Assembly (NCBI GenBank): GCA_044226975.1
Contig: JBGAFY010000001.1
Coordinates: 1 to 38,107, forward strand
Length of the DNA stretch: 38,107 nucleotides
Origin: Rhabdochlamydiaceae bacterium
Lineage (GTDB): Bacteria; Chlamydiota; Chlamydiia; Chlamydiales; Rhabdochlamydiaceae
Direction: 5' to 3'
Below the pieces are notes generated by a model, which had not been told where the DNA came from, searched no databases, and saw only the letters and a list, made by a program, of their open reading frames with translations. This document shows, piece by piece, positions 7,383-7,997 of this stretch. The first letter of the stretch is position 1. Every line of letters starts with the position of its first letter. The position numbers were made by a program, and so were the translations under genes.

Positions 7383-7997
7383 TTACAACAGTTTCTTATT
7401 CTCAAATAAGGAAATGCCTATCATTATTCCTTTAGCAAAACTGACCATCTTGTATGGATATTTTTCTGTACTCGAAGCAAGCTCTGTTAACTTAAAATGT
7501 TTCTCTTTAAAATCAACCGACATTTTTTCTGTCAAACTCAAGATCTCTAAACTTATCCTCATCTCAATTCCTTTTAATTTTTCCGCATAAAAACTTTTAT
7601 CCAGCAAATCGTAATGAGGAACTTCGAATAATTGTTTTGAGACTTGGATATATTCACTATCTTTCTCTTTCTCCATTAGTGCTATTCTTTTCACAATAAA
7701 CACATCTAGGAAACCCTGGTAATTTTCTTTCCAAGTAGGGTACCTATTAGCATTAAGTGTTATTTCAAATCCAAGGTTGCGCGTAACCAGTCTCTTCCAC
7801 AAGTCTTCAGTTTTTGCGAGCAGACACCACTGTTTTTGCACACAGCTCACTACACAAAGTTCCTGAGCATTCAAATAAGAAAAAAATTGAAGCACAATTT
7901 CTTTTGGTACACTTCGGATATCTAAAGCTTGTGATATGGATTCAGTATTGCCGACTGTTATGCCTCCGTAACTAACGACTTTCATCAAGATCTCCAT
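7383..7997 (-). CDS. F-box domain protein (eukaryote-like, candidate host-ubiquitination effector)
   Basis: 204 aa. Residues about 28-70, RSVPKEIVLQFFSYLNAQELCVVSCVQKQWCLLAKTEDLWKRL, match the F-box consensus (LPxEIL..I...L....L.....VCK.W..L..D..LW). An alternative ATG at 7985 has a GGAG upstream. Confidence 0.8.
   Translation of the reverse strand: MEILMKVVSYGGITVGNTESISQALDIRSVPKEIVLQFFSYLNAQELCVVSCVQKQWCLLAKTEDLWKRLVTRNLGFEITLNANRYPTWKENYQGFLDVFIVKRIALMEKEKDSEYIQVSKQLFEVPHYDLLDKSFYAEKLKGIEMRISLEILSLTEKMSVDFKEKHFKLTELASSTEKYPYKMVSFAKGIMIGISLFENKKLL

Follow-up and report, generated by a model that had tools for sequence, protein, structure and literature searches.

The window, by which we mean the whole 38,107-nucleotide stretch of DNA analyzed here, contains a tol-pal cluster whose two halves are separated by a small AT-rich segment, and it is within this segment that a predicted F-box protein is encoded on the minus strand. 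The genes tolQ, tolR, and a broken tolA-like gene lie to one side of the segment and tolB and pal to the other, all of them on the plus strand (Table 1); the other flanking genes encode a LysM protein and MurI, and sdh genes and tatD lie upstream. The F-box gene is the only open reading frame (ORF) of its kind in the 38 kb.

Table 1. Features of the F-box gene, of the insertion that holds it, and of the surrounding tol-pal genes
Feature	Coordinates	Strand	Description	Basis
tolQ	5418-6185	+		Pfam/NCBIfam
tolR	6175-6612	+		Pfam/NCBIfam
tolA-like gene	6609-7351	+	Broken	Frame comparison with the intact 249-aa L001 ortholog
Insertion	7352..9109	.	Lineage-specific, from the end of the tolA-like gene to the start of tolB; 1,758 bp, 35.6% GC	
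F-box protein CDS	7383..7985	-	200 aa; stop codon 7383-7385	ORF and four aligned orthologs
C-terminal tail	7386..7505	-	Residues 161-200, poorly modeled	pLDDT 45-54
Linker and predicted long helical hairpin	7506..7781	-	Residues 69-160; orphan, putative target-binding or oligomerization module	AF2
F-box domain	7782..7916	-	Residues 24-68 of 200 aa (28-72 in 204-codon numbering)	Pfam PF12937
N-terminal 23 residues	7917..7985	-	Candidate type III secretion signal	Composition, hydropathy, dN/dS 0.5-1.7
Putative ribosome-binding site	7992..7995	-	GGAG, 6 nt before the ATG at 7985	Read from sequence
Promoter-like element	8028..8056	-	TTGACA (8051-8056), 17 nt, TTAAAT (8028-8033); putative	By eye
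Gene remnant	8060..8200	+	Last 47 codons (141 bp) of a 298-aa gene	tblastn, 81% identity
Hypothetical acidic protein	8299..8793	+	164 aa, hydrophobic N-terminus	Conserved, dN/dS ~0.1
tolB	9110-10471	+		NCBIfam PRK01029 TolB (chlamydial-type), 483.7 bits
pal	10555-11250	+		Pal_lipo 110 bits, below curated cutoff 125.35; Pfam OmpA 67.1 bits against cutoff 27.2

The longest ORF at this position spans 7383..7997 (204 codons), the extent given by the original prediction, and opens with an in-frame ATG at 7997 that lies 12 nt beyond a second ATG at 7985. Because the GGAG motif stands 6 nt upstream of the second ATG, and because the closest relative (L004) has ACG in place of the first ATG, we place the true start, as read from the sequence, at 7985, which gives a protein of 200 aa. 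The predicted ORF is thus present, but its start had been set 12 nt too far upstream. The alignment of all four orthologs (those of the window, L004, L001, and L012) also begins at the second ATG. The GGAG motif is kept in the window, L004, and L001 and is not found in L012, and the same three of the four genomes conserve the promoter-like element upstream of it. A scan of the minus strand for consensus promoters and terminators called nothing; the scanner accepts a -10 hexamer only if its second base is A, and it did not call TTAAAT.

The insertion contains the F-box gene together with the remnant of another gene and a gene for a hypothetical protein of 164 aa. We regard the segment as a lineage-specific insertion because in the next relatives, L009, L010, and L011 (TolB identity to the window of 70% for L009 and 62% for L010 and L011), tolB follows directly on tolA, the order tolQ-tolR-tolA-tolB-pal-LysM-murI running uninterrupted with a tolA-tolB spacing of 7-100 bp. 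The F-box coding sequence has a GC content of 34.7%, compared with 42.9 ± 1.6% for 19 other genes. Absence from the next relatives and this atypical composition mark the F-box gene as a recent gain at the tolA-tolB junction. The original prediction had described the gene as encoded inside the tol-pal cluster. That description holds for position, between tolQ-tolR-tolA-like and tolB-pal, but not for membership: the gene is neither co-oriented with the cluster nor conserved with it, being carried on the opposite strand within an insertion and absent from L009, L010, and L011, and it is not a member of the operon. Its location within tol-pal has no functional meaning that we can find, and we see no functional tie to Tol-Pal.

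The insertion itself has a history of loss. The 298-aa gene, of which the window preserves the remnant, is intact in L004 and L005, where it lies beside a 135-aa gene (L004 6483-7787). Both genes are also missing from L001, but the deletion junction there differs from that of the window, and we therefore conclude that the pair was lost twice independently. Both deletions spared the F-box gene and its upstream region. The tolA-tolB gap is, by these sequences, a small island that is actively eroding. The 135-aa protein of the L004 and L005 island is Cys-rich and looks secreted. The gene at 8299-8793, which was inserted together with the F-box gene, runs divergently from it and has a promoter-like site of its own (TTGACA-17-TAGTAT at 8221-8249); its 164-aa product matched nothing in Pfam, NCBIfam, or the PDB. 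That this product might be a secretion chaperone is speculation, its N-terminus being conserved and hydrophobic and its sequence matching no chaperone family.

Other junctions near the cluster also vary. A different F-box-like protein, of 420 aa, is encoded in L010 (a 2.2-Mb contig; 12695-13957, minus strand) a few kilobases downstream of tol-pal/murI and is flanked by tnpB genes of the IS605 family; to judge from this case, F-box genes evidently land repeatedly near tol-pal/murI. Between tatD and tolQ, the window encodes a 292-aa protein (4541-5419, minus strand) with a weak match to glycosyltransferase family 92 (18.8 bits, below cutoff), and in this slot L009 encodes an unknown protein of 395 aa, whereas L010 has a pair of IS605 transposase genes.

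Profile searches place the domain of the minus-strand protein squarely among F-boxes. Pfam PF12937 (F-box-like) matched at 42.8-44 bits against a curated cutoff of 24.3 (E 4.5e-11 to 1.8e-11; residues 28-72 in the 204-codon numbering), and PF00646, the classical F-box, scored 20.0-20.3 bits, slightly below its cutoff of 20.5. A family profile run against all PDB sequences recovered F-boxes only, with FBXL5 the best (E 1.7e-9) and SKP2, FBXW and FBXO proteins, KDM2B, and GID2 among the further matches, all of them confined to residues ~21-90. Identity over the F-box is ~52% to human FBXL5 (42-46 aa) and ~46% to SKP2 (some 45 aa). When compared with these two, the protein retains the consensus positions P, E, I/L, F, S.L, EL, VS, V.K.W, LA, and LW; the Leu of the Leu-Pro that starts the F-box is replaced by Val in all four orthologs.

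The predicted fold agrees. Modeled on the four orthologs alone, AF2 reached a pLDDT of 44.6; on an alignment of 66 sequences (the four orthologs and 62 F-box relatives, every member with a Pfam F-box-like match), mean pLDDT rose to 78.4, with values above 80 over residues 21-160 and of 90-96 over the F-box (residues 21-70). The model has F-box helices at residues 28-35, 40-46, and 51-57 and a fourth helix at 60-71. In Foldseek comparisons, the modeled F-box superposes at 0.8 Å over 42-44 residues on FBXL5 (6vcd_B) and SKP2 (1fqv_A), both of which were solved in complex with SKP1, and all top matches in the PDB are F-box subunits of SKP1 complexes. Matches in a library of viral structures (BFVD) are F-box proteins of giant viruses and poxviruses. 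Searches with the whole model gave no match at E ≤ 0.001 in either PDB or BFVD, the overlaps being limited to the F-box. The original prediction had called residues about 28-70 a textbook F-box and proposed a Pfam HMM search as a check; the PF12937 score and the 0.8-Å superposition bear the description out. We conclude that, by both sequence and predicted fold, 7383..7985 encodes a genuine eukaryote-type F-box.

The remainder of the protein is of a different character. The N-terminal 23 residues are rich in Ser, Thr, Val, and Gly and have low pLDDT, and hydropathy analysis found neither a Sec signal nor a transmembrane segment in the protein (maximum 19-residue value, 1.26). The F-box is followed by a linker with the conserved motif RNLGFEI.LN...WKE.Y, which leads into a predicted hairpin of two helices (residues 85-121 and 127-153; pLDDT 81-90), and the tail carries a motif, YP....FAKG, of which there is a faint echo in distant relatives. 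This C-terminal part of the AF2 model rests on 4-8 sequences. The C-terminal ~130 aa had no sequence match in Pfam, NCBIfam, the PDB, or 1.84 billion representative proteins, which accords with the earlier statement that no recognizable substrate-binding domain or repeat follows the F-box, and in the Foldseek searches nothing in the PDB or BFVD matched the fold of the AF2 hairpin.

Full-length members of the family are extremely rare, numbering only four among 5.8 billion clustered proteins (identity of 100, 87, 73, and 59%). Their reading frames are intact in all four cases, free of internal indels and stops at dS values of up to ~0.6, although the proteins differ by up to 43%. The C-terminal 130 aa keep their length and helical pattern without indels over a divergence of up to 48%. 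All orthologs with enough flanking sequence occupy the same tolA-tolB position; L012, the most divergent, is a 1-kb contig that does not reach as far as tolA. Since the window contains many broken genes, the case for an intact F-box gene draws on the window and, in addition, on three assemblies independent of it.

Selection has acted on this gene very unevenly. In comparisons of the window with L004 and L001, the whole-gene dN/dS is 0.46-0.78, whereas eleven neighboring genes have values of 0.008-0.13. Among the four orthologs, dN/dS is 0.12-0.28 in the F-box core, where the bootstrap interval stays under 1 for each of the six pairs, compared with 0.5-1.7 in the N-terminal 23 residues and 0.54-1.36 in the C-terminal 104 residues, for which the intervals usually include 1. 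The F-box core is under purifying selection. A constrained F-box, fast-evolving flanks, and retention through two adjacent deletions together fit a host-interaction protein. This is the pattern to be expected of an adaptor in which the F-box fits a conserved host partner and the rest is free, or driven, to change, which falls short of proof of an arms race.

The rest of the window points to its source. The closest named homologs of TolB belong to metagenome-assembled genomes (MAGs) of Rhabdochlamydiaceae, Chlamydiales, and Chlamydiota (58-62% identity), and among metagenomic sequences identity rises to 68-77%, with one Logan sequence at 99%. Gene order agrees with the chlamydial loci L009 and L010. 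By these sequence comparisons, the source is an uncultured member of Chlamydiota nearer to Rhabdochlamydiaceae; the window holds neither rRNA nor tRNA genes. It encodes a MurI-type glutamate racemase (11889-12701, plus strand) and a canonical OmpR-family response regulator (13396-14124, plus strand; best PDB matches, RegX3 and MtrA). We considered and rejected the possibility that this regulator is ChxR, the atypical regulator of Chlamydiaceae, as it is of the canonical OmpR type. To our knowledge, a MurI racemase and an OmpR-family regulator are not typical of the genus Chlamydia, and the two genes fit a placement among environmental chlamydiae. A further gene (24788-27466, minus strand) encodes an 892-aa protein consisting mostly of MORN-repeat variants (PF07661, 174.7 bits), a eukaryote-like repeat protein that, by its sequence, is a possible host-interaction factor.

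At least five genes in the 38 kb are broken. The tolA-like gene requires at least three frame changes (0 -> 1 -> 0 -> 2) relative to its L001 ortholog. All are located where the sequence codes for many Lys, Pro, and Ala residues and abounds in runs of A, so that indel errors at homopolymers seem a better explanation than a true pseudogene. An NFACT-family gene (14114-15471) and an MFS transporter (15501-16797) are each split into at least two ORFs, whereas L001 has intact versions of both (451 aa and 431 aa, respectively). Two genes of type II secretion, gspE and gspF (29500-31400), are likewise each split into at least two ORFs. The breaks look like indel errors of a long-read assembly; genome decay is the less likely cause.

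We propose that the F-box protein is a type III-secreted adaptor that binds host SKP1, is incorporated into a host SCF ligase, and recruits a target through its hairpin, a reading to which we assign a probability of roughly two in three. The gene arrived in the small AT-rich insertion between tolA and tolB and is equipped with a promoter-like element and ribosome-binding site of its own. Its product would be exported by type III secretion through the unconstrained N-terminus, whereupon the canonical three-helix F-box, to judge by its sequence and predicted fold, would bind host SKP1 and bring the protein into the host SKP1-CUL1-RBX1 ligase. The fast-evolving C-terminal hairpin would then recruit what is to be ubiquitinated, either a protein of the host or another effector. 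Since SKP1, CUL1, and RBX1 do not occur in bacteria (PMC5770618), a conserved canonical F-box would make sense only in the host cytosol. All known chlamydiae are obligate intracellular organisms with a type III secretion system (PMC4209131); no type III secretion genes lie within the 38-kb window, and from the literature and general knowledge of the phylum we infer that the source organism possesses such a system.

The alternative that fares best is one in which the secreted protein would bind host SKP1 without recruiting any substrate, acting instead by sequestering SKP1 or by blocking the assembly of host SCF complexes, with the C-terminal helices serving only stability or self-association. 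A precedent exists in Legionella LicA, which binds SKP1 without engaging Cullin 1 (PMC5770618), and both the lack of a recognizable substrate-binding domain and the almost neutral evolution of the C-terminus in some pairs are in keeping with such a decoy. A pure decoy, however, would need neither the conserved length nor the conserved helical pattern that the C-terminal 130 aa maintain across as much as 48% divergence. Small F-box proteins with helical C-termini, moreover, can bind substrates, as SLY1/GID2 and VirF do, and on balance we think it improbable that binding SKP1 is all that this protein does.

A still less probable scenario casts the gene as a decaying or functionless eukaryote-like fragment acquired by horizontal transfer and neither secreted nor used. 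It would explain why whole-gene dN/dS lies so far above that of the neighbors, why the gene resides in an eroding island beside the remnant at 8060-8200, why its GC content is atypical, and why the family is so tiny, with four sequences among 5.8 billion. Decay does not readily account, however, for the low dN/dS of the F-box core (intervals below 1), for a frame kept open in all four lineages across dS values of up to ~0.6, or for the conservation of the promoter-like element and GGAG in the same three of four genomes, nor does it explain why two independent deletions immediately adjacent stopped short of the F-box gene.

It is very improbable that the F-box-like helices instead mediate a contact inside the bacterium, for example to regulate the cell-envelope complex: the position between tolA and tolB is the sole point in favor of a Tol-Pal role, whereas the gene has a promoter-like element of its own and runs against the direction of the cluster, does not occur between tolA and tolB in related chlamydiae with an intact tol-pal, encodes a product with no signal peptide or membrane segment where Tol-Pal partners are envelope proteins, and has distant relatives in an unrelated genomic context, and bacteria have no SKP1 (PMC5770618).

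We advance only tentatively the further idea that the hairpin (residues ~85-155) is a previously unseen substrate-recognition module that turns the host's SCF ligase toward a particular target, and we consider it more doubtful than the adaptor reading as a whole. Were it so, the raised dN/dS in this region would reflect an arms race with the target rather than relaxed constraint, and an uncultured chlamydia with a small genome would be steering the SCF ligase of its host.

By means of F-box effectors, intracellular bacteria change the set of host proteins that are marked for destruction. That bacteria mimic F-boxes, and that chlamydiae do so abundantly, is already well established, and nothing in our data overturns that picture; with the present gene, the chlamydial F-box repertoire comes to include an uncultured lineage that is not part of the amoeba-symbiont Parachlamydiaceae. 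The gene is single-copy and its product compact, at 200 aa, with a conserved F-box coupled to a rapidly changing C-terminus, and this makes it a tractable bait for a host target. It also exemplifies a gene that landed in a conserved operon and persisted while its neighbors in the island were deleted.

The closest known proteins are themselves chlamydial. When 1.84 billion representative proteins were searched exhaustively with HMMER, 186 matched at E ≤ 0.001; one of these is a full-length cluster, and nearly all others cover only the F-box and linker. Outside the clade, the closest are small F-box-like proteins of 163-195 aa (P0006, P0154, and P0155; also P0047), and the best relative, annotated as coming from a Rhabdochlamydiaceae MAG, aligns with a BLASTP E value of 2e-16 and 32% identity over 136 aa. 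These small Rhabdochlamydiaceae proteins share with ours the F-box, a linker of the form R.FGF..KLN...W, their size, and a faint C-terminal YA(R/K)G. Homology of the C-terminal parts was considered and set aside, as BLASTP produced no alignment there and hhalign gave a probability of 0.7%. Their genes, unlike the window's, adjoin those for an MBL-fold hydrolase and MsrA/MsrB rather than tol-pal.

Eukaryotic matches, among them a chytrid protein and animal FBXL5-like proteins, score lower than the chlamydial ones. The protein thus seems to be an offshoot of the chlamydial F-box superfamily rather than a fresh capture from a host, a view that the 45-aa domain is too short to settle. A recent animal (FBXL5) origin is unproven despite the 52% identity: P0006 scores higher and aligns further, and 45 aa cannot carry a phylogeny. 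FBXL5 is the best match among solved structures over the 45-aa F-box only, and it has an N-terminal hemerythrin domain and C-terminal LRRs, neither of which the chlamydial protein possesses.

The superfamily to which the protein may belong is large. In 2014, Domman et al. listed more than 370 chlamydial F-box proteins, mostly in the amoeba-associated Parachlamydiaceae and often fused to repeats, and found none in Chlamydiaceae; representatives of these families carry functional type III secretion signals (PMC4209131). The original prediction, which held that bacterial F-box proteins are secreted effectors, is to that extent on documented ground for chlamydiae, although such proteins are less unusual than it implied. 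With the NEX/PEX proteins of Neochlamydia, Protochlamydia, and Parachlamydia, ours has in common a eukaryote-type F-box, an obligate intracellular bacterium as its bearer, fast birth-and-death evolution, and a presumed role as a type III effector engaging host SCF ligases. NEX/PEX proteins, however, form large paralogous expansions, often as LRR, TPR, or ankyrin fusions, in amoeba symbionts with 2-3 Mb genomes, whereas the 200-aa protein is the product of the sole F-box ORF in the window, ends in helices that are an orphan module, and belongs to an uncultured lineage with a contig of about 1.17 Mb.

Legionella pneumophila provides a parallel for what an F-box can do once it reaches the host. 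Its effectors LegU1, AnkB, and LicA each carry an F-box of the eukaryotic type, enter the host by translocation, and bind SKP1 there; of these, LegU1 and AnkB assemble into active SCF ligases, whereas PpgA and Lpg2525 have an F-box motif and yet do not bind SKP1 (PMC5770618). Unlike the chlamydial protein as we envisage it, LegU1, AnkB, and LicA depend on C-terminal signals for export by the Dot/Icm type IV system. AnkB also contains ankyrin repeats and a CaaX motif and LicA a choline-kinase domain, and there is no sequence kinship outside the F-box. In architecture, the chlamydial protein recalls LegU1, VirF, and SLY1/GID2. SLY1 complexes (9o4k_C and 9luo_C) are among the Foldseek matches to our model, but overlap beyond the F-box is poor (rmsd of 15-16 Å; TM scores of 0.22-0.24 on the query and 0.39-0.41 on the target of ~110 residues), and the models give no evidence of a shared C-terminal fold. 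What VirF and the plant SLY1/GID2 proteins do share with it is an N-terminal F-box followed by ~100 aa that contain no repeat domain, and VirF of Agrobacterium, a type IV secretion substrate, is itself a small F-box protein with a short helical C-terminus that binds substrate.
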